DNA from: a virus
DNA: 42,470 nucleotides
Virus record (IMG/VR): IMGVR_UViG_3300030732_000036
Coordinates: 1-42,470 of that record
Strand: one strand, 5' to 3'
Below the pieces are notes generated by a model. The model made no database searches. It saw nothing but the letters and a program-made list of their open reading frames with translations, and was not told the DNA's origin. Shown in pieces: positions 4,317 to 39,961 of this stretch. Each line of letters starts with the position of its first letter. The first letter of the stretch is position 1. A program made the translations under genes and the position numbers.

Positions 4317-4437
4317 GCTTCATTTGCTTCATTTGCTTCAAACTGCTTCATTTGAAGCAAATCACCCTTGCTTCATTTGCTTCACTCGCTTCACCCCTAA
4401 AGGGGTGATGAAGCGAAGTGAAGCAAAAAGGTGAAGC
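4317..4437. repeat. iteron array: 7 direct GCTTCA and 4 inverted TGAAGC copies; probable replication origin
   Basis: GCTTCA starts at 4317, 4326, 4335, 4345, 4370, 4379 and 4388. TGAAGC starts at 4353, 4409, 4419 and 4432. Spacing is 9-10 bp. Central palindrome is GCTTCACCCCTAAAGGGGTGATGAAGC. The array has AT-rich flanks and lies directly after the primase-helicase gene. Confidence 0.7.
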
Positions 4438-4475
4438 AGTACAGGGCGTGTAAATTTTTACAGATTGGAGTGGTC

Positions 4476-4814
4476 ATGACCTGGTCGGACGAATCAAGGC
4501 AATCGCGCGGTTACGACGCGGCGTGGGAGAAGGTCAGGGCCCGGGTGGTGGAGAGGGACAAAGGCCTGTGCCAGGCTTGCCTCGTGCATGACCGGGTGAG
4601 CATCGGGCAAGAGGTGGACCACAGGGTGCCCAAGGCCGAATGCGCTAAGCGCGGGTGGACCCGGGCCCAGACCGATGCCGAGTCGAACCTGTGGCTGCTG
4701 TGCAAGCCCTGCCACAAGGCCAAGACGGCGAGGGAGAACGGCCGGGTGCTGGTGCCCAAGGTCGCCTACGGGGTGGACGGATGGCCGCTTGACAACCCCG
4801 AAAGGCTGGTTTAG
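4476..4814 (+). CDS. HNH endonuclease (packaging-associated type)
   Basis: Motif pattern CQAC...EVDHRVP...NLWLLCKPCHKAKT. GGAG lies 5 nt upstream of ATG 4476. The longer ORF from 4431 would start inside the iterons. Confidence 0.85.
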   Translation: MTWSDESRQSRGYDAAWEKVRARVVERDKGLCQACLVHDRVSIGQEVDHRVPKAECAKRGWTRAQTDAESNLWLLCKPCHKAKTARENGRVLVPKVAYGVDGWPLDNPERLV

Positions 4815-17953: not shown

Positions 17954-20900
17954 ATGGTCAGCGACATTGAAATCCGGCTACGCGCAGACATCGCCCGCCT
18001 TCAGCAAGATATGGACCGGGCCCGCCAGGCGGTGGGCGGGGGGCTGGACAAGATCAATACCGCGGTCGGCAAAACCGCCGGCATGTTCGCAGGCCTGGCC
18101 GTCAGTGTCGGCGCGGTGTCGTTCGTCGCCTTCGTCAAGCAAAGCATCGACGCGGCCGACGCCCTCAACGACCTGAGCGCACGCACGAAGATCGCCGCTA
18201 CCGACCTGGCCGGGCTGGAGTTCGCCGCCAAGATGTCAGGGTCGACGCTGGAGGGTGCGGCCAACGCGGTCAGCAAACTCGCGGTGAACATGGGCAAGGA
18301 CGCCGAGAAATTCCGCGCCCTGGGCGTCACCGCCAAAGACCCGCTCGAGGCGTTTAAGCAGCTGGCCGAAGTCTTCAAAGACATTCAAGACCCGCAGCAG
18401 CGCGCCGCCTTCGGCGCGGCCGCGCTGGGCAAGAGCTGGGCCGAGGTGGCGCCGCTGCTCGACGAGGGCGCGGTGGGCATCGGGGCGATGGTCGACCGCG
18501 GCAAACAGCTTTCGGGCGTCACTGACCAGATGGTGAAGGATGCCGCAGCGTTCAATGACAAGCTCGACGAGATGGGGTTCGTTGTGCGCGGCGTCGGCAC
18601 GCGCCTGGCGGCCGATCTGCTGCCGATGCTAAATTTGCTGGTGGACGATCTGACCGCCACCGGGGACGCCACGGCGAAGGCCACCGCCGAATTCAGCCCC
18701 CTGGCCGAAATTTTCAGGGGCGTCGTGGTCCTCGGCGGCTATATCACCTACCGTTTCAAGGAGCTGGGCACAGAAATAGGCGTGGCCACCGCCCAGGTGG
18801 TGGGCCTTACCAGCGCAATGTATAGCTTCCTGACCCTTGATTTCGACGCGGGGGTGTCGAAGCTGCGAGGCACCAGCGCTGCGGCCGCGCTGTCCGCAAC
18901 CGAAGCCCGCAAGGCAAGCGACGACTTCGACGCGTGGCGCAAAAAGTGGGCGGAACTGGGCGCCACCGCCCGGACGGCCAGCACCGAGGTGGGGGACAGC
19001 GCCGAAGCGGCCGCCGCGCGCGCCGCTGCCGCCGCCAAGAAAGCGGCCGAATTCCTCAAGGCCGAAGAACTCGCCGCCGCGCGCAAGAAGGCGGCCGACG
19101 AGTCCGCGCGGGCGACCAAGAAAGAAGAGGACGCCTACCGGGGGCTGATCAGCTCGATCAAGGAAAAAATCAACGCCAACGAGATGGAGCTGGCGACGGG
19201 CGAACCGCTCACCGAAATGCAGAAAATGCGCCTCAAGCTGGACCAGGACATTGAGGACGGCACGCTGGCGCTGACCGCGGCCCACCTCGACGAAGTGCAG
19301 GCGCTGCTCGACATCCTGGACGCGTCCCAGCGCTACGCCGCGGGGGTGAAGAAGGTTGCAAAGGCCGTTGAGGACTTGGGCACCGAGCGCGAATCTGCGC
19401 TCAAGATCGCCACCAACGAAGCCGAGACGCAGGAACGTCTCGTTGCCGAGTTCGGTAAAACGAAATTGGCGATCGAGAAAGTTACGCTTGCGCGCATGGA
19501 GGAACGCCTGGCGCAGCGTGCTGCGCTCGAGCTGGACGAAAAGGAAGTGGAACAGCTGAACCGGCTGATCGAGGCCAAAACGCGCGCGGTCGCCGCCGGC
19601 AGCCAGCTGGAGGTGCTGGAGCAGCAGAAGAAAGCGACCGAAGAAGCGACCGAAGCGCACAGGGAAATGTGGGAGTCGATCGACCGTACAGCGCACGATA
19701 CCTTCGTCAGCATCATGAACGGGGGCAAGAACGCTGCGCAGCGCCTGAAAGACACCCTCAAGAACACCTTCTTCGATTGGCTGTATCAGCAGACGCTGAA
19801 GAAGTGGATCATCAATATCGGCACGGCCACGGATTCCGGCGGCCTGGTGTCGGGCATCGCTTCGATGTTCGGCGCCGGCGGCGCGACGGGCGGCAGCGGC
19901 GGCTTCATGGCCAACGCATCGACCTGGATCTCGGCAGGCAAGAGCATCTACCAGGGCTTCTCCACCGGCATCGCGGGCAGCCTCGGCGGCCTGGTGTCGA
20001 GCTTCGGCACCGCCATTGGTTCGTCCGCAGTCTCGGCGTTCGGCATGGGCATGTCCTCGCCAGCGGCCGCCGCAGTCGCTGCCGAACTGGCCGGCGGTGC
20101 AGCGGGCGCCACAGTCGGCGCCGCCGGCGCGGCCAGCGCGGGGGCGGGTGCCAGCGCTGCAGCCGCCGTGCCTATCGTCGGCTGGATTGCGGCGGCCATG
20201 ATCGCGGCGAACGCCGTCTATAAACAAGGGTGGGACGCACAGAACGGCACCATGAGCGCGACCGGCGAAGTGCTGGGCGCGCCCGGCCTGGTGGGAAATA
20301 AAATCCTGCAGGGCATCGGCATGAACAACACCATGGCCAATATGTTTTCGGGCGCCAGCGCGATCTCCACCCTGTTCGGCCGCCGCAACCCGCGCGTGAC
20401 CAGCCAGGGCCTGGAGGGTGCGCTCACCATGGACGGCTTCAGCGGGCAGACCTTCGCCAACATCGAGGAAAAAGGCGGCCTGTTCCGCAGCACCAAGCGC
20501 TACACCCAAACGGGTGCTCTCGGCACGGAGCAGGAAAAAGCGTTCGAAGACACGATGCAGGCCATCGCAACCTCCGTGAAGGTGTTCAGCGAGGTACTGG
20601 GGGTCGAGGCTGACGTGCTGGCCGGGTACAGCAAACAGATCAAGCTGGAGCTCACGAACGACGCCACCCAGAACCAGGCGATTATCTCGAAGATGCTCGG
20701 CGAGGTCGGGGACGAGCTCTCGATGCGCCTGATTCCGGGCCTGAACGCGCTGACCAAAGAAGGCGAGACATCGAGCACCGCGCTGCAGCGCCTGGTGGGG
20801 GACTACCAAGCCCTGGACGCGATCTTCGGCACGATCGGAACCACGTTCGGCGCGGTCGGCGTGGGCAGCCTGGAGGCGCGCGAGCGCTTGATCGAACTGG

Positions 20901-22504
20901 GCGGAGGGGTGCAGGCGCTGGCTGCCGGCGTCGACTCGTTCGCGCAGACCTTCCTCACCGAGGCCCAGCGCATGGCTCCGGTGCAGGCAGCGGTGGTCAA
21001 AGGCATGGCCGACATGAATCTGGCATGGGTGGACACCCGCGAAGAATTCGCGGCCGTAGTCCTCGGCCTGGACAAGACCACCGAGGCCGGCGCGAGGGAC
21101 TTCGTCTCCCTGATGGCGCTGCAAGAAGCCTTTGCCGCCGTCTATCCGGAGATCGAGAACACCACGGGCGCGCTCATGAGTTCGGCCGATGTGCTGCGCC
21201 AGCGCGCCGCCATCCTGAAAGAATTCGAGCAGGTTTACATGACGCAGGGCGAGATCGAGCGCGAGCAGATCGACGCCACCAATCTCGCCATCTATGACCT
21301 GCTGCAGACCCGCAAGGCCGAGAAGCAGGCGGCGGAAGACGCTGCGGTGGCAGCCAAGAACCTGGCCGAGGGTATGCGCGGCGCCGTGGCCGAATCGCTG
21401 TCCCACGTCGAAGACATGGTGCAGCAGCGGATGGCCACCGAGAAGGCCGCGTTCGATGACGTCATCGCAGGCATCAGCTCGAGCATGGAGCGCGTCAACG
21501 GGAGAATCAGCAAGCTGCGCGAGCTGGCCAGCGCGCTGGCAACGGCGGTCCCGGTGCAGCAGACCCAGCAGCAGGCCGCCGCCGTGCGCCAGCTGGCCGC
21601 CGCGCAGGTCGCCGCGGCGCTGGCCATCGCGCGCGCGTCGGGGGTGCTGCCGAGCGCGCAGAGCCTGGCCCCGAGCCTGAAGGCCCTCGGCGCCGGCGAC
21701 ACCGGGGAATTCGCCACCTTCCAAGAGTTCCAGCGCAGCCAGCTGCGCGCCGCGAACGACATCAACGCGCTGTCCCAGATGGCCGTCGGTCAGCTGTCGG
21801 TGGAAGAGAAAACGCTGAGGGTGTTGCAGGACCAGAAATACCAGGCCGAGGTAGCCTACAAAGACCAGATCGGGGTGCTGAACCTCATCTTGGACAACGC
21901 GCGTAAGCAGACCGAGGACGCACTCAAGGGCGCGAGGGTGCTGGCGGCCATCCCTACCGCCCTGCAGAACATCCCGGGGGCCCTGAACGAGCTTACGCGG
22001 ACCATCGTGGCCCTGCAGGTGATGACCCCGCCGCCCGCCGCTGGCGGCCCGGCAGCACCCCCAACAGGCACCTCGCCGCCGCCTACCGGGACAGTGGTGT
22101 TGGACCAGGCCCGCATGCTGAACGAAATCTACCGCGAGCTGCTGCGGCGCGACGCGGACGCCGGCGGCCTGGCGTATTACCTGGAAGAACTGAATTTGCG
22201 CGGCCAGTCTTTCGACCAGGTCCGCCAAAGCATCTTGAGCAGCCCGGAGTATAAGGCGCTGCAGCTGACCCAAACGACGGGCTTTGCCTCAGGGACACAA
22301 ACCAGTACAATGATGCAGGACAATAATGCGGCGTTGCTGGAAGAACTGCAGGCCCTGAACGAGCGGATGGCGAAAGTGCAAACCGAAATGGAAAAGACCG
22401 CGAAAAACACCGAACAATCGGCGCTGGCGGGTTCCCAGATGGCCGATCAATTCAATAACGTCTCGGCCGGCGGTAACGTGCTGCTGATGGAATCGGCGAA
22501 ATGA
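17954..22504 (+). CDS. tape measure protein (1516 aa) with C-terminal Pro-rich linker and DUF4214-like module
   Basis: Long coiled-coil-rich ORF after the chaperones. It has a Gly/Ala-rich hydrophobic core and a C-terminal LNEIYRELLRRDADAGGLAYYLEEL...SPEY segment. Confidence 0.9.
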   Translation: MVSDIEIRLRADIARLQQDMDRARQAVGGGLDKINTAVGKTAGMFAGLAVSVGAVSFVAFVKQSIDAADALNDLSARTKIAATDLAGLEFAAKMSGSTLEGAANAVSKLAVNMGKDAEKFRALGVTAKDPLEAFKQLAEVFKDIQDPQQRAAFGAAALGKSWAEVAPLLDEGAVGIGAMVDRGKQLSGVTDQMVKDAAAFNDKLDEMGFVVRGVGTRLAADLLPMLNLLVDDLTATGDATAKATAEFSPLAEIFRGVVVLGGYITYRFKELGTEIGVATAQVVGLTSAMYSFLTLDFDAGVSKLRGTSAAAALSATEARKASDDFDAWRKKWAELGATARTASTEVGDSAEAAAARAAAAAKKAAEFLKAEELAAARKKAADESARATKKEEDAYRGLISSIKEKINANEMELATGEPLTEMQKMRLKLDQDIEDGTLALTAAHLDEVQALLDILDASQRYAAGVKKVAKAVEDLGTERESALKIATNEAETQERLVAEFGKTKLAIEKVTLARMEERLAQRAALELDEKEVEQLNRLIEAKTRAVAAGSQLEVLEQQKKATEEATEAHREMWESIDRTAHDTFVSIMNGGKNAAQRLKDTLKNTFFDWLYQQTLKKWIINIGTATDSGGLVSGIASMFGAGGATGGSGGFMANASTWISAGKSIYQGFSTGIAGSLGGLVSSFGTAIGSSAVSAFGMGMSSPAAAAVAAELAGGAAGATVGAAGAASAGAGASAAAAVPIVGWIAAAMIAANAVYKQGWDAQNGTMSATGEVLGAPGLVGNKILQGIGMNNTMANMFSGASAISTLFGRRNPRVTSQGLEGALTMDGFSGQTFANIEEKGGLFRSTKRYTQTGALGTEQEKAFEDTMQAIATSVKVFSEVLGVEADVLAGYSKQIKLELTNDATQNQAIISKMLGEVGDELSMRLIPGLNALTKEGETSSTALQRLVGDYQALDAIFGTIGTTFGAVGVGSLEARERLIELGGGVQALAAGVDSFAQTFLTEAQRMAPVQAAVVKGMADMNLAWVDTREEFAAVVLGLDKTTEAGARDFVSLMALQEAFAAVYPEIENTTGALMSSADVLRQRAAILKEFEQVYMTQGEIEREQIDATNLAIYDLLQTRKAEKQAAEDAAVAAKNLAEGMRGAVAESLSHVEDMVQQRMATEKAAFDDVIAGISSSMERVNGRISKLRELASALATAVPVQQTQQQAAAVRQLAAAQVAAALAIARASGVLPSAQSLAPSLKALGAGDTGEFATFQEFQRSQLRAANDINALSQMAVGQLSVEEKTLRVLQDQKYQAEVAYKDQIGVLNLILDNARKQTEDALKGARVLAAIPTALQNIPGALNELTRTIVALQVMTPPPAAGGPAAPPTGTSPPPTGTVVLDQARMLNEIYRELLRRDADAGGLAYYLEELNLRGQSFDQVRQSILSSPEYKALQLTQTTGFASGTQTSTMMQDNNAALLEELQALNERMAKVQTEMEKTAKNTEQSALAGSQMADQFNNVSAGGNVLLMESAK

Positions 22505-29465: not shown

Positions 29466-30848
29466 TTATTTGTAACCGCGTACCTTCATCGCGTCCAACA
29501 GGATGTCCTGCACCGCGCGCTTGCTCTCCACCCGCTCCAGCACCATCTCGTCGACGGTGTCGCGCGCGATGATGTTGTAAATAAACATCGCCCGATCGTG
29601 GCCCGCCTGCATCTGCCGGGTGGGGCCGATCCGCTCGATGATCTGCAGCCTGTTTTCCAGGTTCCAGTCGTGTCCGAAGAACACCAGGATGTTCCCGCCA
29701 TCCTGCAGGTTCAGGCCGTGGCCTGCGCTGGCCGGGTGGGCGAACAGGACCGGGATTTTCCCGGCGTTCCAGTCGACGATGGTCTGCGGGTTCGCGTCGA
29801 GCTGGCGCCCCTTCGGGAACGCCTTCTTCAGCCTGGCCAAGTCCGACTTGAAATTGTACGCCACCAGCACCGGCATGCCCCCGGCTTCCTCGATGATGTC
29901 GTCGAGAGCGTCCAGCTTCGTGTCGTGGATGTCGCGCCACTCGGTGCCGCTCTCGCCCACGTAGGCCGCGCCGTTCGCGATCTGGAGGCATTTGACGGTG
30001 CGCGCGGCGGCGCCGAAGGCCTCCACCTGGTGCTCCTCCAGCTCCATGAACATGCGCTTCTCCATGTCCTCATACAGCGCGCGCGCCTTGGCCGGCAGGT
30101 CGACGTAGATGTTCGTGATGATCGGGTCGCGCAGGTCGAACCAGTCCTTCGCGTCGATAGTCAGGCAGAGGTCGCGTAGGGCGGCCTGTATCTGGCGCTG
30201 TGCGTGGTCCTTCGGCGTCACGCCGTAGCCGTCGTACGACTTCTCAAACCAGCGCTGGCGGAACCCGTCGTACGTCTTGCCCAGGCGCTGGCCTTTGTCG
30301 AGAAACCACATCTGGCCCCACAGGTCGGCCAGGCCATTGGGCGAGGGCGTGCCGGTCAGCTCGATGAACCGCTTTACCTCCGTGTGCGCCACCCGGTTAA
30401 GCGCCTTCGCGCGCGCGGTGCCCTGGCGCAGCCTGAAGCCCTTCAGCTTCGTGCTCTCGTCGCACACCACCGAGGCGAAGGGCCAGGCGCGTTTCTCGAA
30501 GTGCTCGACCAGCCAGGGCAACTGCTCGTAGTTGATCGTGCAGATGTTGGCGTCATAGCGCAGCGCGGCCAGGCGCTCCTTCTCGCTACCGACGATAGGC
30601 GAGATGGTCAGGTGGCGGAAGTTCGACCACTTGCGCACCTCGTCAGGCCAGGTGGACCGGGCCACCCGCAGCGGCGCCACGATCAGTGCCGGGCGGTCGT
30701 CGATCAGCTGCAGGGTGTCGAGGGTCGACAGCGTGCCGGCCGACTTGCCCATGCCCATCCCCGCCCAGGTCGCGCCGCGCGGCATGCCGAGCTGGTGATC
30801 GAGGATCAATTTTTGATAAGGCCGCGGGGTGAAGATGCGGCCGCTCAT
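29466..30848 (-). CDS. SNF2/DEAD-like helicase
   Basis: Motifs PRPYQ, GMGMGKS and VVCDEST, plus C-terminal helicase motifs (HPASAGHGLNLQ). ATGA coupling to the upstream gene. Confidence 0.85.
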   Translation of the reverse strand: MSGRIFTPRPYQKLILDHQLGMPRGATWAGMGMGKSAGTLSTLDTLQLIDDRPALIVAPLRVARSTWPDEVRKWSNFRHLTISPIVGSEKERLAALRYDANICTINYEQLPWLVEHFEKRAWPFASVVCDESTKLKGFRLRQGTARAKALNRVAHTEVKRFIELTGTPSPNGLADLWGQMWFLDKGQRLGKTYDGFRQRWFEKSYDGYGVTPKDHAQRQIQAALRDLCLTIDAKDWFDLRDPIITNIYVDLPAKARALYEDMEKRMFMELEEHQVEAFGAAARTVKCLQIANGAAYVGESGTEWRDIHDTKLDALDDIIEEAGGMPVLVAYNFKSDLARLKKAFPKGRQLDANPQTIVDWNAGKIPVLFAHPASAGHGLNLQDGGNILVFFGHDWNLENRLQIIERIGPTRQMQAGHDRAMFIYNIIARDTVDEMVLERVESKRAVQDILLDAMKVRGYK

Positions 30849-31093
30849 ACGCCGAAGCCCTTTAACAGGACTTCGCGGCGGATCTCTACCGGCACGAAAT
30901 TGAACGGGTGCGGATAGTTGTGCTGCAGCCGGCCGAGAACACATCGCGCATTGGGGTGGGCAAATACGGTCGCGCGCTCTATGTCGTCGGTCTCGTCCAC
31001 CCACGGCACGTCGTTACCCCATTTGTTTTGCACCCCCATGCGAAGAAAGGTGCCGTCCGCCTTCACGGCCACGAACGCCTGAGTTATTTTCAT
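30845..31093 (-). CDS. hypothetical protein (82 aa)
   Basis: Start ATG has GGCGGAAG upstream. Overlaps neighbours by 4 nt at both ends. Confidence 0.55.
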   Translation of the reverse strand: MKITQAFVAVKADGTFLRMGVQNKWGNDVPWVDETDDIERATVFAHPNARCVLGRLQHNYPHPFNFVPVEIRREVLLKGFGV

Positions 31094-31341: not shown

Positions 31342-31490
31342 TTTTCTCTCCATATTCCTCGGACTACTGCACCGCACAGGACACCACCGACCCAGCCGGC
31401 GACCCAGGCACGTTCAGGGGACGCGTGGGCGGCCAGGATGCTAACGGCGGCGATACCTACGGCAGCCAGCCCGTGCACGATCAAGCGCAT
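31338..31490 (-). CDS. small two-TMD membrane protein (50 aa)
   Basis: Sequence is MRLIVHGLAAVGIAAVSILAAHASPERAWVAGWVGGVLCGAVVRGIWREK. ATGA stop/start overlap with the next gene and 10-nt overlap with the previous one. Below the ORF-track cut-off. Confidence 0.45.
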   Translation of the reverse strand: MRLIVHGLAAVGIAAVSILAAHASPERAWVAGWVGGVLCGAVVRGIWREK

Positions 31491-31867
31491 GGCGGCACCT
31501 CGTCGACTTCATCACCGAAGGCAGCGCGCACGATGGCGCGGCACACCGCTACCAGCACGGTTTCCCCATAGACCTGGTCGCCGTCGCAGGGCTTGTCTTG
31601 ACTGCGGACATACCAGCCGCCACGGGGCCAGGTCGGGACCAATTCAGGGCGGTACTGTTCGATCAGCGGCCCGCACATCCGCCAGCTGGTGCTGTAGTCG
31701 ATGACGCCGACAGCCGTGGGGGCGCCGCCGAGGCGCTGGGCGACCAGTACGCAATGGTAATCGTCGGAGCGCTGCACCCGGCGGATCTCTAGCGATTCGG
31801 GTGGTACGCCCTCGGCGCGCGCGACCCAGTAGTCGAGGGCGGGGCCGATCAGGTTAGCGGTTTTCAT
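31481..31867 (-). CDS. DUF2591 / NinX-like protein
   Basis: The N-terminus MKTANLIGPALDYWVARAEG is typical of the family. ATGA coupling. Confidence 0.7.
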   Translation of the reverse strand: MKTANLIGPALDYWVARAEGVPPESLEIRRVQRSDDYHCVLVAQRLGGAPTAVGVIDYSTSWRMCGPLIEQYRPELVPTWPRGGWYVRSQDKPCDGDQVYGETVLVAVCRAIVRAAFGDEVDEVPPCA

Positions 31868-32109
31868 TTGACCACCTCGGAGACCCGCGCGGCCAGCATG
31901 GCATCAGCGATCTTGTACGCCTCTTCGGCGGCGTTCTCCGGGTATCGGAATTTCTCCACGCAACCCGGCAGTGCAGCCTTTGCGAAATCGTCGCGCAGAC
32001 CTGAGGGGTGGTTTGGAGAATTCAGCACGGCCAGCACCTCGGCGAGAGTCAGCCCGAAGTGTTCGGCCAGATGGTCGATTACTTCGGATTTGCTAAGTAT
32101 TCTTTTCAT
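31864..32109 (-). CDS. hypothetical protein (81 aa)
   Basis: ATGA coupling at both ends. Confidence 0.55.
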   Translation of the reverse strand: MKRILSKSEVIDHLAEHFGLTLAEVLAVLNSPNHPSGLRDDFAKAALPGCVEKFRYPENAAEEAYKIADAMLAARVSEVVK

Positions 32110-32423
32110 TTTAAAAGTTCCTCAATCTGTTCATAGGAATCGATCACCTCGACGCGCTGGCCCATCTTGCGCATGCGCGCGTGCTCGCGCAGCTGGTAGT
32201 CCTCGGGCTTCACACCGGGCGCCTTCAGTTCGACCCATACGGTGTTTCGCTCGTCGGCCACTTTGCCGTTAACCAAACGCGGGGACCGCGCGGGCAGCAT
32301 CACCACCCGATCAGGTGCGCCGCGCCGGCCGATCCATTTCACTTTGCGCACCTCGCCGCCTCGCTCCTTGACGCGCTGGACAAGGCGCTTTTCGATATCG
32401 CTCTCGCGCAGTGGGCGCTTCAT
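32106..32423 (-). CDS. VRR-NUC domain nuclease
   Basis: Motif pattern GAPDRVVMLP ... VWVELKAPGVKPEDYQLRE...G fits the PD...ExK...Q signature. Confidence 0.8.
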   Translation of the reverse strand: MKRPLRESDIEKRLVQRVKERGGEVRKVKWIGRRGAPDRVVMLPARSPRLVNGKVADERNTVWVELKAPGVKPEDYQLREHARMRKMGQRVEVIDSYEQIEELLK

Positions 32424-33034
32424 ACCAGATCGGCCAGATCGTCGACAGGCGCAGGGCTCTCGGCACCCCAGCGCACAAGGCCGGGGTCTGGGTGTTTATA
32501 GTCGAAAGCGCGCAGCGGCATGATCACGCCGACAAACTCGCCCTCACGCCCGATAATCTGCACCTGCGCCGCACCTTCGCCGTTGTGGCGAATGACCGGG
32601 TTGCTACGCACGCCCAGCGCCTTGGCAATCTTGCCGAACCGCGCCAGCAAGTTGAGCGAGAACTGGGCGGCTTCGCCGCTGTGCTGAGAGGGTATGATGC
32701 GGCGGTACGGTGGAAAAGTGCCGTCCACCGGGGCGAAGCTGATGCCGGCGAGTGACCATTTTCCGTTGTCGAACTCCAGCACCGCGGTGTTCCCGGGGCG
32801 CGATAGCACCAGCTTGATAGCCTCGCTCGGGATGATCACGTCGGGCAGTTCCTCCTGCACCCCAGACACCACGAGGTCGCGCAGCACAGCGGCACATTCG
32901 CCGTTGGTCGCTACGCAACGGGTCTCGGTGGCGCGCACCTCGACAAGCACCCCGTTCAGGTAGTAGCGCACGTCCCTGTCGCATGAACAGCAGGCCGCGG
33001 CGCGCAGGTGGGAGGTGTTGAGAGTGGCTTGCAT
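32420..33034 (-). CDS. short DnaN (beta sliding clamp)-like protein, 204 aa
   Basis: AGGAG RBS. Motifs RYYLNGVLVEV...CVATNG, VIIPSEAIKLV, DGTFPPYRRIIP and C-terminal VGVIMPLRA resemble DnaN domain II/III. The upstream extension to 33226 was rejected. Confidence 0.65.
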   Translation of the reverse strand: MQATLNTSHLRAAACCSCDRDVRYYLNGVLVEVRATETRCVATNGECAAVLRDLVVSGVQEELPDVIIPSEAIKLVLSRPGNTAVLEFDNGKWSLAGISFAPVDGTFPPYRRIIPSQHSGEAAQFSLNLLARFGKIAKALGVRSNPVIRHNGEGAAQVQIIGREGEFVGVIMPLRAFDYKHPDPGLVRWGAESPAPVDDLADLV

Positions 33035-33068
33035 CAGTTCTGCTCCTGTTTCGGGTATCGATGGGAGA

Positions 33069-33096
33069 ATAATAGCACAAATAAACAGTTGTACTA
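33069..33096 (-). promoter_or_regulatory. leftward extended -10 promoter: TAGTAC-N16-(TGc)TATTAT
   Basis: Minus strand reads GATTAGTACAACTGTTTATTTGTGCTATTATTCTCCC. The -35 overlaps the polA stop codon. Confidence 0.5.
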
Positions 33097-35553
33097 ATCT
33101 TTTTTGTAGCGATACGCCTCGAACCCGGCGGCGGCCAGCGGCATGTCCGGTGCCCACGGCGGCGGCGCACACAGCAGCGCGGCCAGGTGCTCGGCGTTGA
33201 ACTCGGGCCGGTCGGGCGCTTCGCACAAAACCTCGTCGTGAACTGTCAGGATAATTTCGTATCCGAGCGAGGGTGCGTCGTCCCCTTCACGTTCGAAATA
33301 CGTGGCGCCGTCCTCGAATTCCCCGTCGACGAAGTGGCCGCCGTGGATCGCAGGCATGTTGCACGCCATCACATCGCGCGCCACGGCCTGGCAGACGTTC
33401 TCGAAGAACTTGCCGCCGTACGAATCCAGCCGGGCCCACTTGCGGGTGTACTGGTTCTGGCCCATGTAGGTGATCTTGGTCCGGCCCAGATTCACCTGCT
33501 CGTCAACCTCCACCGCGTCGATATCGACGGTCTCGGCCATGTCCTTTTTCTTGCGCTTCTCGGGCTCCAGCCGAGGCGAGGGGTAGCACAGCGCGCGACC
33601 CGAGGGCAGGACGATGCGCAGCCAGGCACCGTCCCTGCGCACCTTCACCTTGCCGCACGGGATCGTCACGCCCGGGGTGCATATCGCCGCGCGCACCGCG
33701 CCGTCGAGTTCCTTCCAGTAGGCTTTGATGCTGGCGTGGCCGCTGCGCCAGCCTAGCTTGAACGACTCGCACACCAGCCAGGTTTTTTCCAGCAGACCCG
33801 ACTTCGCCACCGGATCGCGGCCGGCCTTGCGGTGCCACGCCAGCATGATGTTCGCCTGGCCCCACACCTCGCCCGGGATGAACTTGGCGGCGCGCTGGGC
33901 CATCTCGTCGAGGTCGATTCCGTAGTTCAAGGCGAAGGTGACGAACGCACCCACGCCGCCCTCGTAGCCCAGCGCCAGCTCCTGGACCTTGCCGATTTGC
34001 CGCTGGTCCTTCGTCACGTCCCCCGGCGCCACGTTGAACGACTTGCCATAGGACATCTTGTACAGGTCGTGCCCCTTGCGGACGGCCTCGCCCTTGGCGT
34101 CGACGGCCAGCTCGGGTGCCTTGTTGCGCCGGCACAGCGCGAAGTACTCCGGGCCGGTCAGCCACTTGCCGGCGGCGGTCTTCACCGTGTCGAACTCGGC
34201 GAAGGCCTTCAGCTTCCACGACTCGCCGGCCAGCCACGCCTGGTCGCGGCCCTCGATGTTCGACAGGTCGGCCACCACCAGCTTGCGCCCCGGCGGCGCG
34301 GCGATGCACCCCCTGATCGTCGAGCTGGTGGCGTGCATGACGTTGTCGAAGACCAGGTGCGCGAAGCCGCCCTTGATGGCCTTGATCGCCAGCTCGACCA
34401 GGGCGGAGGCCAGCAGTCCCCGGCTCGGCAAGTTCTGGGGCTGGAACATGCGCCCAGCCCACCGCCCAGTGCGCGCGGCGCCGTCGAACTGCAGCAGGCC
34501 GCGTAGCCGGCTGTCCGAGATGCTGGTGCAGCGCACCAGGGTGCGGTACTTGCTGGTGCTGGTGGTCGAGGCCTGCAACCGCACGCGCAGCAGTTCGCGC
34601 AAGCCCTCGGGCAGGTCCGGGTCGGCGATACGCCGCTCCAGGGTGGCCGATTGCATGTCGGGCAGGTCCACCCCGTACTCGGCCAGGATGTGATACAGCA
34701 GGGCGTCGCGCTTCGTCGCGCTCTCCACCTCGCCGACTGTCAGGGCGAAGGCCTGGTCCTGCAGGTCGGCCTGTGCCACGTCCACCGCGTTGATCGCGCA
34801 CTCGGCCAGCTCCAGGTCGATGAAGACGCCCCGATCGTTAATGCGCTGGTCGAGGTGCCACAGCGCCAGCTCGGGGCCGCGGTAGTTCCACATAGGCATG
34901 AGCTTGGACGCGGCGCGCATCGCCACGATGTCCTGGCCGGCGTAGATAAGGAATTGCCGCCACTCGGTCGGGTGGGTCTCGCGCGTGGCGCGGCCTGTCC
35001 ACTCGAGCGCGGCCAGCTCCTTGGCGGCCCTGTAGGCGGCGGGCTTCTCGCCGGCGGCCTTCTTCCGGAACTTGAACGCCTGCGGCTTGCAGAACAGTTG
35101 GATCAGCGCCTTGCCCGCCTTGTCCTTCGCCTTGTCGCTGTCCAGCTTCAGGGCCTCGCAAAGGGTCTCCAGCTTGCCCGGCAGGCCGTGGGCCAGCGCT
35201 TGGACCATCGTGTCGCGCCAGCGGTGCAGCGGGATGTCCAGACCGTGCTTGCGCTCGAGCGTGCGGTCGAAGCGGGAATTGTGGGCCCACACCTCGATAT
35301 CGTCGTCGGCCAGCGCGGCGTCGATGTCCAGGCCGACCATGATGTCGTGCGACTCGGGCAGCAGATCGTCGCCGACCAACAGCCATTCCTCGCCGCCCGG
35401 GGTGAGATCGCGCACCAGCACCGCGCCGTCGCCCAGCGCCAGTGCGCGGATCATGATCTCGGCCGCCGGGTCGTCGCTGTAGCGGTCAACGCCGCAGGTG
35501 ATGGGCGTGGCGGAGAAGGTCTCGGTGTCGAGCCAGAGGCGGGGCGCGGTCAC
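33094..35553 (-). CDS. family A DNA polymerase with 3'-5' exonuclease domain
   Basis: Exo I is LDTETF, Exo II is HNSRFD and Exo III is YAGQDIV. Pol motif A is VVADLSNIEGR, motif B is RQIGKVQELALGY and motif C is LTVHDEV. Confidence 0.92.
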   Translation of the reverse strand: MTAPRLWLDTETFSATPITCGVDRYSDDPAAEIMIRALALGDGAVLVRDLTPGGEEWLLVGDDLLPESHDIMVGLDIDAALADDDIEVWAHNSRFDRTLERKHGLDIPLHRWRDTMVQALAHGLPGKLETLCEALKLDSDKAKDKAGKALIQLFCKPQAFKFRKKAAGEKPAAYRAAKELAALEWTGRATRETHPTEWRQFLIYAGQDIVAMRAASKLMPMWNYRGPELALWHLDQRINDRGVFIDLELAECAINAVDVAQADLQDQAFALTVGEVESATKRDALLYHILAEYGVDLPDMQSATLERRIADPDLPEGLRELLRVRLQASTTSTSKYRTLVRCTSISDSRLRGLLQFDGAARTGRWAGRMFQPQNLPSRGLLASALVELAIKAIKGGFAHLVFDNVMHATSSTIRGCIAAPPGRKLVVADLSNIEGRDQAWLAGESWKLKAFAEFDTVKTAAGKWLTGPEYFALCRRNKAPELAVDAKGEAVRKGHDLYKMSYGKSFNVAPGDVTKDQRQIGKVQELALGYEGGVGAFVTFALNYGIDLDEMAQRAAKFIPGEVWGQANIMLAWHRKAGRDPVAKSGLLEKTWLVCESFKLGWRSGHASIKAYWKELDGAVRAAICTPGVTIPCGKVKVRRDGAWLRIVLPSGRALCYPSPRLEPEKRKKKDMAETVDIDAVEVDEQVNLGRTKITYMGQNQYTRKWARLDSYGGKFFENVCQAVARDVMACNMPAIHGGHFVDGEFEDGATYFEREGDDAPSLGYEIILTVHDEVLCEAPDRPEFNAEHLAALLCAPPPWAPDMPLAAAGFEAYRYKKD

Positions 35554-35816
35554 AGTTCGGCCTTTTCTTCTCGCGTCAGCGGGCGGATAGAGAGCATCAC
35601 GTAGCCTAGCAAAAGACCGTGCGCAGGCGTCGAGTAGATGTGCGTTATCACGCGCCGCAGGGACTTGCCGGTGCCTACTTCTCCCCGCATTTCGTTGAGC
35701 AGCAAGTGGTCGCCGACTTGGAAAGGCCGATCCGCCTTGCGCAGCTCGGCGCGCTTCAAGTTGTTCAGCACATCAGCGAAGAAGACGTGCGACAGTTTCA
35801 ATTCGTGCGTAGTCAT
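35550..35816 (-). CDS. ASCH / DUF3850-like protein
   Basis: Motif MTTHELKLSHVFFADVLNNLKRAELRKADRPFQVGDHLLL. An alternative GTG start lies at 35831. Confidence 0.7.
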   Translation of the reverse strand: MTTHELKLSHVFFADVLNNLKRAELRKADRPFQVGDHLLLNEMRGEVGTGKSLRRVITHIYSTPAHGLLLGYVMLSIRPLTREEKAEL

Positions 35817-35823
35817 ATGCTGA

Positions 35824-36099
35824 TCACTCACCCTTCCGTGGCGGCCAGTACGCCACCGGGATTTTCTGATAGTCCACCGCGTTGCCGTGGCCTTTCGCTA
35901 CCATCATCTTGCCGAAAATTTCTTGCGTGTTAGCTTGGGGGTACTTCCTCATAACCTTGGCGGATATGAGGCTGTACTCCACGAAGGCCAGCGCCCCACC
36001 GCGCGGGCCGATCAGCCAGAAGTAATCGAGCATGCAGACGTAGCCCTGGCGGGGTGTCGTTAATTCGGACAGCGGGATTTCTTCGAATCCGGTTCTCAT
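35824..36099 (-). CDS. hypothetical protein (91 aa)
   Basis: ATGA coupling to the upstream HNH gene. Confidence 0.5.
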
Positions 36100-36461
36100 A
36101 AAAGCTCCATTTGTTCAAAAGGCATGCCGGGCCAGTAGTGCGGCCCTTTCACGGCGTTCGCACGCCAGTGCAGGATTTGCAAATTCCACGGCACGTGCAG
36201 GCCGCAAACCGTCTTGCCGATCTTCGGCACGATGTGGTCGACCACGTAAAGCTCGCCGAACCACACCGACAGGCGCCGGGCCTTGGCGTAGACGATCGCG
36301 ATGGTGCGCAGGTCGGCCCAGGGCGGCGTAGCGCGCCTGGTCTGCGCCCGGTGCACGATCCCTTCCTTGCCTGGCGGGCGCGATAGCGGGCGTTTCAAGT
36401 TCGGCACGAACAGCGGGCCGACGTGGAAACCCTCGGGCAGGGGTAGCGGGTGCTGGGTCAC
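36096..36461 (-). CDS. HNH endonuclease (second copy, different family)
   Basis: Motif VVDHIVP...[23 protein letters not shown] start in a GTGA overlap. Confidence 0.7.
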
Positions 36462-36796
36462 AGCAAGTCCTTAAAGTCGTCCTCGATCACGTCGAAGTCG
36501 TCGATCAAAAAGAGCGCCACCACGCGCTGGCAGGTGGCGATGTCGAACATCTGCATGTGTGCCCGGTGCTTCGGGATGCCCAGCCGGCGCGCCAGCTCGC
36601 TATAGGCCGCGCTGCGTGTCATCTTCCCGGACTGCCACAGCGGGTCAAACGCGTTGTGCGCGGCGACGCGGGCGGCGGCCAGCGGGCTGCCCTTCAGGGC
36701 CGGCGTGCCGTGGTTCCTCCGCTCGGGGAACTCTTCGGAATACTGGCGGCCGCCGCCGTAGACTATCCAATCCTCGTTGTCTTCGAAGTAGCTCAC
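36458..36796 (-). CDS. hypothetical protein (112 aa), possibly DUF3268-like
   Basis: GTG start in a GTGA overlap with the small membrane ORF. Ends in the acidic tail DDFKDLL. Confidence 0.5.
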
Positions 36797-36936
36797 CTGG
36801 CACCCACGCAAACGAAGCTGATAACGCCCTTGACCAGCACGCCGCCGCGCTGGGTGCAGTCCTCTTCGACGGCGAAGATCGCCGCGACGATCAAAAAGGT
36901 CGCGACCACCAGCACCGCCAATACGATCATTCGCAT
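36793..36936 (-). CDS. small single-TMD membrane protein (47 aa)
   Basis: Sequence is [47 protein letters not shown]. It overlaps both neighbours. Below the ORF-track cut-off. Confidence 0.4.
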   Translation of the reverse strand: MRMIVLAVLVVATFLIVAAIFAVEEDCTQRGGVLVKGVISFVCVGAR

Positions 36937-37244
36937 GGCCAATACTCCTTCGGTATGTCTTCGTGCGCAACGCCACGGGCGCGCGCCTGGTTATAAAATC
37001 CGTGCGGGTGCTGATCGCAGTACGGGTGCGTGACCCGGTGCGGAAAGTGCTCACCCTTCGTCATGTCCGGGCCGCTGCAGTTGCACAGCCCGCGCTTGTT
37101 GTACGCCCGCTGCTCGATGCGCCAGCCCTTGCGGTGGCCGCACATCGGGCAGCGCGGCACCAGCTTGTAGTCGTCCGGGTGGGTCTTGCTCACCCGGCGG
37201 TGACGGCATGCCTTGTGGCGGCACCTAACCGACCATGTAGTCAC
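36927..37244 (-). CDS. Cys/His-rich zinc-finger-like protein (105 aa)
   Basis: GTGA coupling. Contains CRHKACRH, CPMCGH and CNC clusters. Confidence 0.55.
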   Translation of the reverse strand: MTTWSVRCRHKACRHRRVSKTHPDDYKLVPRCPMCGHRKGWRIEQRAYNKRGLCNCSGPDMTKGEHFPHRVTHPYCDQHPHGFYNQARARGVAHEDIPKEYWPCE

Positions 37245-37888
37245 CGAGGGGCCTCGAAACCGAATACCTCAACCTCTGCCCTACGCCGTGCCTGTGCGGC
37301 CTCCTCAACGGTAGCGAAGCTGCCTAGGTATCGCCGCACGCCTTCACGGTGCAGGTTGGCAATCGCCTTGCCTTTGCGGATAGTAACGCCGCGCTCCCCG
37401 GAAGCACCAGGTTGCCGTGCCGTATTGAAGCTCTGCACTGTCGGCGGTGCCCACCGACAATTGACTTTGCTATATCCGAGATGCCCCTTGATGCGGTCGA
37501 GGGTGAAGCCCTTAGGGCACGGCCCCATGTCGGTTAAGAAAACCCGATAGTCGCCCCACTCGGCGCACACTGAAATACTTTTATCGGTATAGTACGGTGC
37601 ACTATCGCGGGCAGGATTATTGCAGCGCGTGCGCATGTCGGACCATGCCCGGAATTCACGGGTTTTTGTCCCCGAGGCTGCGCCACCATGCACCAGCGCA
37701 ACGCGCGCCGATATCTCCTTCCAGCCCACACATCCGCAACTCAACGACCTGCCGCTGCGCATGTTCGAAATCGATACAACTTTCTCCACACCGCAAATAC
37801 AGCGGCACAAAAACCGGCTCTTTGGTAAGCGGCTTAGCAGCAACCAATCGCCGATTTTAGTCCCTACCAGTTTGAGAGCTGCAGTCAC
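37241..37888 (-). CDS. AP2-domain DNA-binding protein with degenerate HNH_3-like core (homing-endonuclease-like)
   Basis: GAAGGAAAG RBS and GTG start. Motif LDRIKGHLGYSKVNCRWAP, then AP2-like GVTIRKGKAIANLHREGVRRYLGSFATVEEAA. Visibly lower GC than neighbouring genes. Confidence 0.65.
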   Translation of the reverse strand: MTAALKLVGTKIGDWLLLSRLPKSRFLCRCICGVEKVVSISNMRSGRSLSCGCVGWKEISARVALVHGGAASGTKTREFRAWSDMRTRCNNPARDSAPYYTDKSISVCAEWGDYRVFLTDMGPCPKGFTLDRIKGHLGYSKVNCRWAPPTVQSFNTARQPGASGERGVTIRKGKAIANLHREGVRRYLGSFATVEEAAQARRRAEVEVFGFEAPR

Positions 37889-37908
37889 GTTCTTTCCTTC
37901 GAGGGGGT

Positions 37909-37926
37909 GGCCCGCCGAAGCGGGCC
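37909..37926 (-). terminator. GC hairpin with UUCG loop after the SSB gene (no U-tract)
   Basis: Minus strand reads GGCCCGC-TTCG-GCGGGCC. It is nearly the same hairpin as at 28441. Confidence 0.35.
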
Positions 37927-37935
37927 GGGTTGAAA

Positions 37936-38487
37936 TTACACCAGGTCGTCGTCTTCCGTGTCGGCACCCTCGCCGAGGTCGTCGAACTCGTCCTCGCTCG
38001 CGGCGCGGCCGCCGGCGAAGGCGTCACCGTCGCGGACGAACTGCACGCCGCCCAAGCTGGCCGACACGCCCACTCCGGTGTTGTCATAACAGAACAGCTC
38101 GATCGACGCATTGACGTAGCAGCCGGCGTACGGGCGGCCGTCCTCTTCGGCCAGGATCGATTTATCGCGGTCGATCACCAGGGGGCGGGTGCCGTTCTTG
38201 GCTGAGAGCGCCATCATGCCCTCGTAGCCGTCGTACGACTTGTTGTCGCCGTCCTGGTAGCAGAACTTATTCGGGTTGCCCCGGATCTGCTTGATGATCC
38301 CGGCGGCCTTGGCGCCGTGCTTGGCGGTCACGACTTCCAGAATCGCCGCTTCGATCATCTTGTGCTGCGCGCTGCCCTTCGGGATCAGGAACGTGGCTTT
38401 GAACTTCGGGTCATCGCCCGGCTTGAACGCTTCAGCCTTGAACAGGCCAGGGAACGACAGGCGTACGTCTTTCAGTTTGATGCTCAT
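37936..38487 (-). CDS. single-stranded DNA-binding protein (DUF2815-like) with acidic tail
   Basis: N-terminus IKLKDVRLSFPGLFKAEAF. C-terminus EDEFDDLGEGADTEDDDLV. Confidence 0.75.
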   Translation of the reverse strand: MSIKLKDVRLSFPGLFKAEAFKPGDDPKFKATFLIPKGSAQHKMIEAAILEVVTAKHGAKAAGIIKQIRGNPNKFCYQDGDNKSYDGYEGMMALSAKNGTRPLVIDRDKSILAEEDGRPYAGCYVNASIELFCYDNTGVGVSASLGGVQFVRDGDAFAGGRAASEDEFDDLGEGADTEDDDLV

Positions 38488-38503
38488 GATTTTCTCTTTC
38501 AGG

Positions 38504-39961
38504 TTAGACCAGGTCGCCGAAGTCTTCGGCGTCTGGCGTTTCGGGGATTACTTCGAACTCGTCGGACACCGGCTTGATGACCAGCGCGGGGCGCTTGTCA
38601 CTGGCCGGCGCCACCGAGGGCTTGCCGTCGCTGCGGGTGATCAGGCCCACGGCCTTGGTCCATTGCTTGTCGCCGATCAGCGGCTTGCCATCGACCAGGC
38701 GGACGTGCAGGGCTTCGGCCGTCGTCGGGCTGATCAGGGAGAAGTCGTACATATCCTCCTTTTTCAGCCTGAACGACTTGAGTAGCTTTTCGGCCTCGTC
38801 AGGGTCACGCCAGGCACGATTGCCTTGTTTGCCCTGCACCAGCTTGTAGCCCGGCACCGCAGCGCCATCGAGCAGCCTGCGCTCGACGCGCGCCCGCACC
38901 GCCTTGCACCAACCCTCGACCAGTTCGATCGAGTCCATCAGCACGGCCAGGTGCTCGTCGTCGGCTTGCACGATAGCTGCTTCGGCGCCGGCCAGCGCGG
39001 GCTGGAGGGTGGGCTTCTTGACGATGAAGCAGGACAGCCCGGGTTCGCCGGTGTCGCGCTGCATGAAGTCCACCGACTTGAGCGTCACGCCGTACGCAGC
39101 GGCAATGATCTTCTCGGCCTCGCCGATCGACACCGCCACTTCGCCCTTCTTCAGCTCGATCACTTTCTCCAGCACGTCGGGTGCTTCGATGTTCTCGAAG
39201 TCGCCGATGACGGTGGAGAGCACCTTGTCGCGCAGCGCAGGGCAGGTCGCCTTTGCTTTGCAGAAACGGCACTGGTCCTCGCCCGGGGTCAGGAACGTGG
39301 TGCCGCCGCAGTTGTCGACGATGGATAGCGCCGAGCGCGCGGCCTTGAGCGCCCGCTGCTCGAACTCGCGCAGGTGGGCCACGGAGCAGCGCCACTCGTC
39401 GACGTGGTTGAGTCGGGGTTGGTCAATCACCAGCTCGACCTCGTCGATGTCGTAGACGTGGGCGAACTCTTCCAGCGCGCCGAGGGCATAGAGCATGAGC
39501 TGTTCCGATTCTTCGGCGAACACCTGCACGCCCTTGCCGTACTTCAGATCCCGGATTCGCAAGATGCGTTTTGCCACCTTGATAAGGACCGTGTCGGAGG
39601 TGCCGAACTGGTCCGGGATCTCGCCGACGAAGAACGGCAAGCGCTGCTCGACCATGAGCACGTCGCCGTCCTCGACGTCGCGGCGCACGTTGTTCAGGTA
39701 CTTCTGAACCTCGCGCGCCATCTCGTCGGTGATGACCTCCGTTTTCTCGATGCCGTGGTCGGTGTAGGTGAGCGGCGCGCCCGCCCAGAAGGCGGTGTCG
39801 TGCTCGCCGTCCAAGCACTCGGCGGCCAGCGCGTGCGCCAGCGTGCCCTCTTCGGCGAAGCTGCTGGAGGTGTCCGGCAGCTTCGACTCGGCGGCCACCG
39901 ACCCGATGCAGCGCATCCAGCGGTGCGCCGACGAGGGCGATAGTTTGGCGTGCTCGGCCAT
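38504..39961 (-). CDS. DUF2800-like PD-(D/E)XK (Cas4/RecB-like) nuclease
   Basis: N-terminus [16 protein letters not shown]. Cys cluster [12 protein letters not shown]. Partnered with DUF2815-like SSB and PolA, as in known phage replication modules. Confidence 0.8.

Follow-up and report, generated by a model that had tools for sequence, protein, structure and literature searches.

A probable shared docking motif at the ends of DNA enzymes in a phage with the duf2800-gp2.5-polA module

Introduction

In bacteriophage T7 the acidic tails at the C-termini of gp2.5, which is an SSB (single-stranded DNA-binding protein), and of the helicase-primase gp4 bind basic patches (front, TBD) of the polymerase gp5, and the gp2.5 tail is required to stimulate the gp6 exonuclease. 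The subject here is a set of tails of a similar kind in a phage genome of 42.5 kb and 64% G+C, IMG/VR record IMGVR_UViG_3300030732_000036 (42,470 nucleotides, the whole of which was analyzed and is called the window below). A preliminary description had reported that five DNA-metabolism proteins of the window end in Asp-Leu-(Val/Leu), had compared them with T7, and had proposed a shared docking peptide. The analogy with T7 is sound, and the docking idea has gained strength, since the tails are conserved, co-vary across the proteins of one genome and are appended to protein families that are otherwise tail-less. The tails are probably copies of one short linear motif that would tether DNA enzymes to a common receptor.

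The likeness to T7 includes the fold family of the SSB (gp2.5/Enc34 type), a disordered acidic tail with a hydrophobic end (in the window SSB the net charge is -11 over the last 20 residues, and the predicted local distance difference test score, pLDDT, of the AlphaFold2 model is <50 at residues 177-183), a helicase-primase that carries the same kind of motif, and a family A polymerase encoded in the same module. The differences are also clear. The tip in the window is aliphatic and Phe lies in an upstream unit, whereas Phe is terminal in T7. The motif of the window helicase-primase is in a linker rather than at the end of the protein, although it is C-terminal in Burkholderia phage BcepC6B (..SDLA) and in a related locus, L054 (..DEDW). 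The window genome has at least six tail-bearing or motif-bearing proteins (clients), compared with two in T7, and relatives add a nuclease, methyltransferases and the small terminase subunit. Finally, the tips drift in step between lineages, and the receptor is a putative one. The principle of the T7-type tail is known; the larger client set, the aliphatic tip, the linker copies and the in-step drift of the tips appear to be new here.

The bacterial SSB C-terminus (...DDDIPF) is likewise an acidic peptide with a hydrophobic end, and the proximal phage motif D-E-F-D-D-(I/L) resembles D-F-D-D-D-I. The SSBs belong to different fold families, and the arrangement differs as well. In bacteria one SSB tail serves many pockets, whereas in the window genome the tail is also found on at least five further protein families, and many tailed proteins would imply one pocket.

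The widespread duf2800-gp2.5-polA module has been described, as to gene context only, in PMC8093625. The same genes are present in the window, where the DUF2800 nuclease, the DUF2815 SSB and the family A polymerase are all encoded on the minus strand in the usual module order, with the tail pair on the first two members. This order is kept in 38 of the 44 IMG/VR loci that formed the first set of relatives, in which open reading frames (ORFs) were taken from stop to stop and assigned by BLAST. No mention of shared or co-varying tails was found in PMC8093625 or in the other literature searched, the coverage of which was incomplete.

A Common End on Five Proteins

All five C-termini listed in the preliminary description are present in the sequence, and the identities it gave to the proteins hold in profile, phmmer and Foldseek matches, which PHROG matches back (Table 1). 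The SSB has an OB-fold of the gp2.5 type, with PDB matches to 4klk, 5odj and 4jg2 and an AlphaFold2 mean pLDDT of 90.7. In a hand-curated list of 54 window genes, the starts of which are approximate, no other protein ends in DL[VL], as had been stated; the nearest other ends are ...ERLV, ...KGLV and ...MELL. A test of the frequency of this end, which had been suggested at the same time, gave 5 of 54 proteins compared with 0.04 expected, whether the estimate is based on composition or on how often DL[VL] occurs internally (10 in 12,921 positions), and a binomial P of ~8e-10. Asp occupies position -3 in all five tails.

The pattern was defined after the data had been viewed, which speaks for chance, for the composition bias of a genome with 64% G+C, or for gene conversion between short DNA repeats. 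In a look-elsewhere simulation that counted any tripeptide of two residues and a residue class recurring at least five times at random internal positions, five was reached in 1 of 20,000 trials. This rate, the P of ~1e-9, the differing tail codons and the recurrence of the pattern in >180 independent loci make an accidental origin scarcely credible. The codons differ between the tails (GTC/GTG/GTA, CTG/TTG, GAC/GAT, with stops TAA/TGA), and therefore the repeat resides in the protein and not in the DNA. A DNA-level signal at the gene ends is ruled out by the same differences, and gene conversion as the source of matching tips by synonymous codons that differ both within and between genomes.

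Anatomy of the Tails

DL(V/L) closes a longer motif, which in many cases is bipartite. The full unit is acidic-acidic-(F/aliphatic)-x-D-(L/I/V/M)-aliphatic, and it is often present twice per tail. The version with Phe, written as acidic-acidic-Phe-x-(D/V)-aliphatic, has 10 matches in the window proteome compared with 0.58 expected, a count reached in 0 of 5,000 shuffles; 8 of the 10 fall in four DNA-metabolism proteins, and 3 of the 10 in the linker of the primase-helicase. The D-L-(V/L) tail of the preliminary description is thus real as a tip, but it is only the end of this longer motif, and it drifts between lineages.

The tails are positioned outside the Pfam envelopes of their proteins and are predicted to be disordered, with low pLDDT in the AlphaFold2 models of the SSB and the clamp-like protein. 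The SSB ends in ...EDEFDDL...DDDLV; its residues 161-170 are modelled with a short helix at a pLDDT of ~79, and F168, 15 residues before the C-terminus, is invariant in 74 homologues. Most homologues of the clamp-like protein stop at ...WGAERAK without a tail, and an extension of 10-15 residues ending in DLV or DLA was found in four clamp-like proteins only, that of the window included. The tail of this family is therefore an add-on.

The protein with prim-pol and helicase domains carries its motif copies in the linker between the two, and the linker motif is at the same place in 24 of 27 primase homologues from related loci. These internal copies argue for docking and against a function that requires the chain terminus. 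The preliminary description had named the prim-pol/helicase among the possible hubs to which the tails dock. With three linker copies of the motif it takes the part of a client instead, and it is non-homologous between the window and Bordetella phage BPP-1 although both use DLV. The primase linker of a distant AT-rich relative (L054/L092, IMGVR_UViG_3300022745_000116) holds ...NDFDDGGEVI... and ...DDAAVDW.

Conservation in Related Phages

The preliminary description had staked its proposal on conservation of the tails in orthologues, and they are conserved in BPP-1, in the 44 IMG/VR loci and in a wider set of loci. BPP-1 has the ends ...VEDLV (exonuclease), ...AADLV (SSB) and ...VADLI (methyltransferase), and in BcepC6B ...SDLA ends both the exonuclease and the primase. 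Nearly all exonucleases of the 44 loci end in ...DEFADV-x(3-6)-EDLV, and nearly all SSBs in ...DEFDDI-x(6)-DDLV. Among the 9,685 ORFs of these loci 86 end in DL[VIL], and 71 of the 86 are homologues of the exonuclease, SSB, methyltransferase or clamp-like protein. The rest are mostly one family of small terminase subunits (Pfam Sf6_terminase).

A scan seeded with this terminase subunit yielded 46 copies, ~36 of them with the end ...D-x-(S/C/T)-D-L-(V/I/L/A). Where full flanks were available, all nine tail-bearing copies had the module; of the tail-less copies two were without it and two with it, an expected trend in small numbers. The earlier restriction of the code to the replisome does not hold. 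In relatives it is also found on the small terminase subunit, several methyltransferase families, a PAPS-reductase-like enzyme (ending in ...YDLI in a DLI genome) and HNH nucleases.

Several small proteins of BPP-1 have ends of related appearance and may be further clients. These are Bbp15 (68 residues, encoded among structural genes, ...SGGDLV), the early proteins Bbp41 (...LDDFEAV) and Bbp44 (...IDDFEVVA), and the small terminase subunit Bbp26 (...DDDPAAGLV). In BcepC6B the annotated methyltransferase gp33 ends in ...GDYELC, and an alternative-frame ORF that overlaps it at positions 31489-32482 of the record ends in ...DDGADLA, like the ...SDLA tips of that phage. A frameshift close to the 3' end of the record could account for this, as could coincidence, the genome being rich in G+C.

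Covariation of the Tips

Among close homologues the SSB tip varies (DLV, DFA, DLA, (D/S)LAG, DVI, ALV and others). The 188 loci with both an exonuclease and an SSB yielded 125 unique tail pairs. The last two residues were identical in 53 of the 125 compared with 17.3 expected by shuffled pairing (0 of 10,000 shuffles), and in 29 of the 94 pairs with an SSB not ending in DLV compared with 6.2 expected (0 of 10,000 shuffles), figures from tests that ignore phylogeny, so that joint inheritance of both tails by related genomes is included in them. A conservative count of independent matched states or co-switches is about ten, not dozens.

The matched tips, given as SSB/exonuclease, include NLAG/DLAG, EGLV/EGLV, DMI/DMV, EFA/EFV, DLL/DLL, QDW/KEW, EAMT/ESMT, DLVGEAA/DLTGEAA and (V/I)F(N/S)/(M/I)F(S/A). 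To these may be added AESLI/AESLI in several Enterobacterales prophages and Yersinia phage YeP4, and VEDFA/SEDFA in Cupriavidus. Other proteins follow the local tip. The small terminase subunit has DLAG in the LAG lineage and DGLV in the GLV lineage, and DLV is another of its ends. Among methyltransferases, ADMI goes with the DM(I/V) genome and GDLA with an NDLA exonuclease, and ADLI and GDLI are found as well. Four proteins of locus L054 share a (D/E)W end, namely the SSB, the exonuclease, the Prim-Pol/VapE primase and an HNH nuclease.

Such covariation between unrelated proteins of one genome is not expected if each acidic tail simply folds back on its own DNA-binding surface as a DNA mimic or autoinhibitor, the likeness arising from common physical needs with no shared partner. 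In favor of autoinhibition, all clients bind DNA, Enc34 ORF6 without its tail can bind dsDNA, and the T7 gp2.5 tail competes with single-stranded DNA for its own cleft, as reported (Marintcheva 2008). The tip is, however, predicted to be free in both the SSB and the clamp-like protein, and autoinhibition is a very unlikely source of the pattern.

Tips also differ within one host. Castellaniella sp. FW104-7C03 (contig NZ_JBELOK010000005.1) has two prophages (L209 and L241) ~130 kb apart, one with the tips EFA/EFV and the other with DLV/GLV/GLV. The two lend themselves naturally to a test of how specific the code is. DLV itself is found in phages that infect alpha-, beta- and deltaproteobacteria and in those of Verrucomicrobia. 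Two codes in one strain, and one code across diverse hosts, argue against a host receptor.

The same prophages bear on the possibility that the tails are C-terminal degradation tags read by ClpXP, ClpAP or Lon, the AAA+ proteases of the host, or by an adaptor, which would bring about the joint turnover of the DNA enzymes. A functionally mixed client list would fit, as would tips that end in small or aliphatic residues (DLV, DLA, DFA, LAG) and the ...LAA or ...AA ends of some distant clamp-like homologues. Different tips in two prophages of one strain do not fit, nor do the internal motif copies of the primase linker, a within-genome matching tighter than a degenerate degron needs, or the demand for SSB in bulk throughout replication. 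In addition, Asp at -3 in all five tails means that the last three residues are not all non-polar, and Asp at this position in a strongly acidic context is unlike the ssrA-like LAA class. There is little chance that the tails are degrons.

A docking motif accounts more readily for these findings. Each tail would be a disordered acidic extension with one or two units, the last of which terminates the protein (...D-L-V/L-COOH). In the window the motif would tether the exonuclease, the SSB, the primase-helicase (through its linker), the methyltransferase, the clamp-like protein and the DUF3268 protein to one receptor, and in relatives the small terminase subunit and other enzymes that modify or cut DNA would be tethered too. 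The clients would work at the replication fork or on newly made DNA, competing for the same site or handing it over. The family A polymerase, like T7 gp5, may offer the receptor in a basic surface, and in the SSB tail the proximal Phe unit is probably packed as well against an SSB OB-fold, its own or that of a neighbor.

A Probable Second Docking Motif in the Operon

Short peptides that bring many clients to one receptor are best known from sliding clamps. The bacterial beta clamp is bound through the textbook motif QL[SD]LF. This motif, the PCNA PIP box and the gp45-binding tails of T4 gp43, gp33 and gp55 resemble the phage tails in being short, often C-terminal, and present on unrelated DNA enzymes that include methyltransferases and nucleases. 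They differ in that their sequence pattern does not fit the tails, that the window clamp-like protein is itself a client, and that a canonical clamp motif is present on a separate phage protein.

This separate protein, of 121 residues (phrog_26577, with a weak EndoVII-like match), has the end ...MPFEQMELL, and the homologues have ...PEQLEMFDGPEQLRLL, ...PEQLDMFDEVLP, ...PDQLELFTQPEQLRLI and, for BcepC6B gp34, ...FEQMELL. The ends of this family contain one or two canonical beta-clamp-binding pentapeptides (QLEMF...QLRLL, QLDMF, QLELF...QLRLI), because of which the 121-residue protein is likely to be a clamp-tethered nuclease and its end a further C-terminal docking motif of this operon, distinct from the first. 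A clamp motif is thus written by the phage in another form than the DLV tail.

A further possibility is that the DLV tails themselves bind a clamp, either the beta sliding clamp of the host or the clamp-like protein that the phage encodes. C-terminal peptides on many DNA enzymes are the way in which clamps work, the phage encodes a DnaN-like protein, and D-L-V is loosely like the end of QL[SD]LF. Yet none of the five tails has the Gln at position 1 or the L-x-L-(F/L) spacing of QL[SD]LF / QLxLxL, and the canonical motif is borne by another protein of the operon. The clamp-like protein carries a tail of its own and was detected through homologues in only 11 of the 44 loci, and the pocket of the host clamp is highly conserved while the tips differ within one host strain. 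Clamp binding is accordingly most improbable. The host clamp was set aside as receptor on account of the separate canonical motif and the tips that differ within one strain.

The clamp-like protein has 204 residues, counted from a true ATG start at 33034, and matches residues 140-271 of E. coli beta (phmmer E 1e-8). The top 50 Foldseek PDB matches of its AlphaFold2 model (pLDDT 92) are all beta clamps (E ~1e-9, probability 1.00). It fails to reach the size of three-domain DnaN (~366 residues), which closes into a dimeric ring, and target-normalised TM-scores are ~0.38. A fragment of domains II-III would include the region that forms the peptide-binding pocket of DnaN. The gene lies directly downstream of PolA, and PHROG and an NCBI record (Ralstonia phage Anchaing) label the family 'RusA-like Holliday junction resolvase', which looks like a misannotation.

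Mosaicism of the Window

In megablast the window region had no match among GenBank phages. Distant blastn showed ~70% nucleotide identity to BPP-1 and BcepC6B in the polymerase/exonuclease/SSB region only. Compared protein by protein, the window and BPP-1 have in common the methyltransferase (weakly), an endolysin, SNF2, the VRR-NUC-like protein, PolA, the SSB, the exonuclease and one small protein. In the comparison with BPP-1 and BcepC6B, no BLASTP match at E < 1e-4 was obtained for the window genes of the primase, terminase, portal, capsid and tail. The window is strongly mosaic, with the duf2800-gp2.5-polA module set in a different virion and packaging chassis.

Candidate Receptors

The window and BPP-1 both use DLV yet share only the exonuclease-SSB-PolA-VRR-NUC-SNF2 core, and for this reason the receptor is probably phage-encoded and a member of that core. 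The swap of modules between the two likewise means that the primase and the large terminase subunit are not the common receptor. The VRR-NUC-like nuclease carries a DDFEVVK tail in L029/L030 and is more likely a client than a receptor.

By analogy with T7 gp5, a basic surface of PolA is the first guess. It is favored because the T7 gp2.5 and gp4 tails bind gp5 patches, because the module is always inherited with PolA, because PolA is never tailed, and because it has conserved basic clusters (three, compared with one each in SNF2 and VRR-NUC and none in the SSB or exonuclease, which is a weak hint). It is favored also by the one, distant clade in which a weakly family-B-like polymerase takes the place of PolA, as the SSB tip there is the T7-like ...EEDDF. 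PolA of the window has 819 residues, compared with 688 in BPP-1, and lies below the Pfam DNA_pol_A threshold (27.4 vs. 34.3 bits); a search of PDB sequences gave no match for it at E up to 0.1. It is one of a divergent family A polymerase lineage, whose extra segments include a stretch with KRKKK.

The SSB OB-fold is the second guess. If the SSB itself were the receptor, its tail would pack on the concave beta-sheet of a neighboring gp2.5-type SSB to give cooperative filaments, and the other clients would mimic the SSB tail to join SSB-coated single-stranded DNA, the polarity being reversed relative to the bacterial SSB C-terminus. Crystals of Enc34 ORF6, both DUF2815 proteins and T7 gp2.5 are reported to have the C-terminus of one molecule set in the beta-sheet of a neighbor, with 842 A2 buried in Enc34 ORF6 (PMC5686142). 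The 4klk chain ends in ...SDFGDL, which is the proximal motif, and AlphaFold2 sets the proximal motif of the window SSB on the SSB core (pLDDT ~79). The SSB belongs to the conserved core, and an exonuclease and an annealing-type SSB are a natural pair. On the other hand, the tip that co-varies is disordered in AlphaFold2 (pLDDT <50), the last 11 residues are invisible in the Enc34 crystal, the SSB has no conserved basic cluster, and no clear rationale is apparent for the docking of terminase or methyltransferase on an SSB. No core column of the SSB was found to track tip type among 191 sequences, in a comparison confounded by shared ancestry. The SSB as receptor is the main alternative, though an unlikely one. 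The tail may be bipartite in function, with the proximal unit binding the SSB and the tip binding the common receptor, because in the AlphaFold2 model proximal DEFDDL sits on the SSB core while the tip is free.

Several of these points, with some others, weigh against the proposal of docking on a common receptor such as the polymerase. The crystal contacts and the placement of the proximal motif in the model suggest that the SSB itself may serve as receptor for at least some of the tail, and the SSB columns give no help in locating the site. A search of PolA, SNF2, VRR-NUC, the SSB and the exonuclease for columns kept in DLV genomes and altered in the LAG, GLV, F and M lineages favored no protein, in a comparison confounded by kinship, the LAG and M lineages being sisters. 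The terminase subunit and the methyltransferases are not obvious partners of a polymerase. In the window the tail of the methyltransferase is no more than weakly acidic, and the small terminase subunit is without one. Finally, the force of the covariation is lessened by the joint inheritance of tails mentioned above and by the unmatched SSB and exonuclease ends of APSE-2, Xfas53, and Acinetobacter phages and prophages.

Possible Significance

A docking motif shared by many clients would amount to a compact and experimentally accessible many-clients/one-receptor network in a phage, and the natural tip variants provide a ready mutational series for mapping the interface. If the proposal is correct, it gives a role to the ends of the poorly characterised DUF2800, DUF2815, DUF3268 and truncated DnaN-like families, explains why the genes for the exonuclease, SSB and polymerase travel together, and allows unannotated replisome-associated proteins to be predicted from the last five residues alone. 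It would also suggest a physical link among replication, DNA methylation and the initiation of packaging, and would supply orthogonal peptide/receptor pairs for engineering.

A broader scheme is possible but must be put tentatively, as it may well be wrong. The module may run on a private and evolvable peptide code, in which one phage receptor, probably the polymerase, would serve as a clamp-independent tool-belt that recruits proteins of recombination, priming, methylation and packaging initiation by way of interchangeable C-terminal tips. Drift of the tips would stop co-resident phages from exploiting or poisoning each other's replisomes, and packaging and methylation would be physically coupled to the fork.

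Features of the Window and Neighboring Genes

Table 1. Positions in the window of the clients, their tails, the candidate receptors and neighboring genes.
Feature	Position	Strand	Remarks
DUF2800 / PD-(D/E)XK exonuclease gene	38504..39961	-	client; E 2e-93
Exonuclease tail, aa 459-485	38507..38587	-	motif present twice (DEFEVI, then EDFGDLV-COOH); past the end of the DUF2800 envelope (aa 4-458); [AT]ADEFADV..x..EDLV in orthologues
gp2.5-type (Enc34/DUF2815) SSB gene	37936..38487	-	client and candidate receptor; PF10991 E 2e-38
SSB tail RAASEDEFDDLGEGADTEDDDLV, aa 161-183	37939..38007	-	proximal motif DEFDDL and tip DDLV-COOH
DnaN-like (clamp-like) gene, 204 aa	32420..33034	-	client; fold of beta-clamp domain II and part of III
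Clamp-like protein tail AESPAPVDDLADLV	32423..32464	-	end ...PAPVDDLADLV; pLDDT 51-60
DUF3268-like gene, 112 aa	36458..36796	-	client; E 1e-17
DUF3268-like protein tail, 18 aa	36461..36514	-	end ...IEDDFKDLL; two motif copies; Pfam envelope ends at aa 94
N6/N4 DNA methyltransferase gene	1010..2194	+	client; N6_N4 E 4e-29; exact start codon uncertain
Methyltransferase tail DRRAEIELIGDLL	2153..2191	+	end ...IELIGDLL; Pfam envelope ends at aa 381 of 394
Prim-pol and AAA_25 helicase gene	2191..4302	+	client via linker motifs; motif scan, Pfam
Primase-helicase inter-domain linker, DEFDEL...DDFDVLDDDFADL	3124..3240	+	three internal motif copies, aa 312-350, between prim-pol and helicase domains
Family A DNA polymerase gene	33094..35553	-	first-choice candidate receptor; duf2800-gp2.5-polA member
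SNF2-family helicase gene	29466..30851	-	alternative candidate receptor; core common to BPP-1 and BcepC6B
VRR-NUC-like nuclease gene	32106..32423	-	weak candidate receptor; core gene, present in 37/44 related loci
121-aa protein gene	36096..36461	-	clamp-type end at 36099..36125
HNH endonuclease gene	4431..4814	+	
HNH endonuclease gene, 215 aa	37241..37888	-	
Cysteine-rich protein gene, 105 aa	36927..37244	-	
1516-aa ORF	17954..22504		

The 112-residue protein matches only the C-terminal half of DUF3268 ('zinc-finger-containing domain'; profile positions 56-116 of 121), and the start of its gene is uncertain. Upstream of it is the gene for the cysteine-rich protein, which is more conserved than the SSB, with 69-82% identity in 5 loci.

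Two HNH endonuclease genes are present. The first lies upstream of the terminase genes, and its product ends in ...ERLV. The second lies between the SSB gene and a downstream zinc-ribbon gene; its product may be a homing endonuclease, because homologues occur in just 4 of the 44 related loci.

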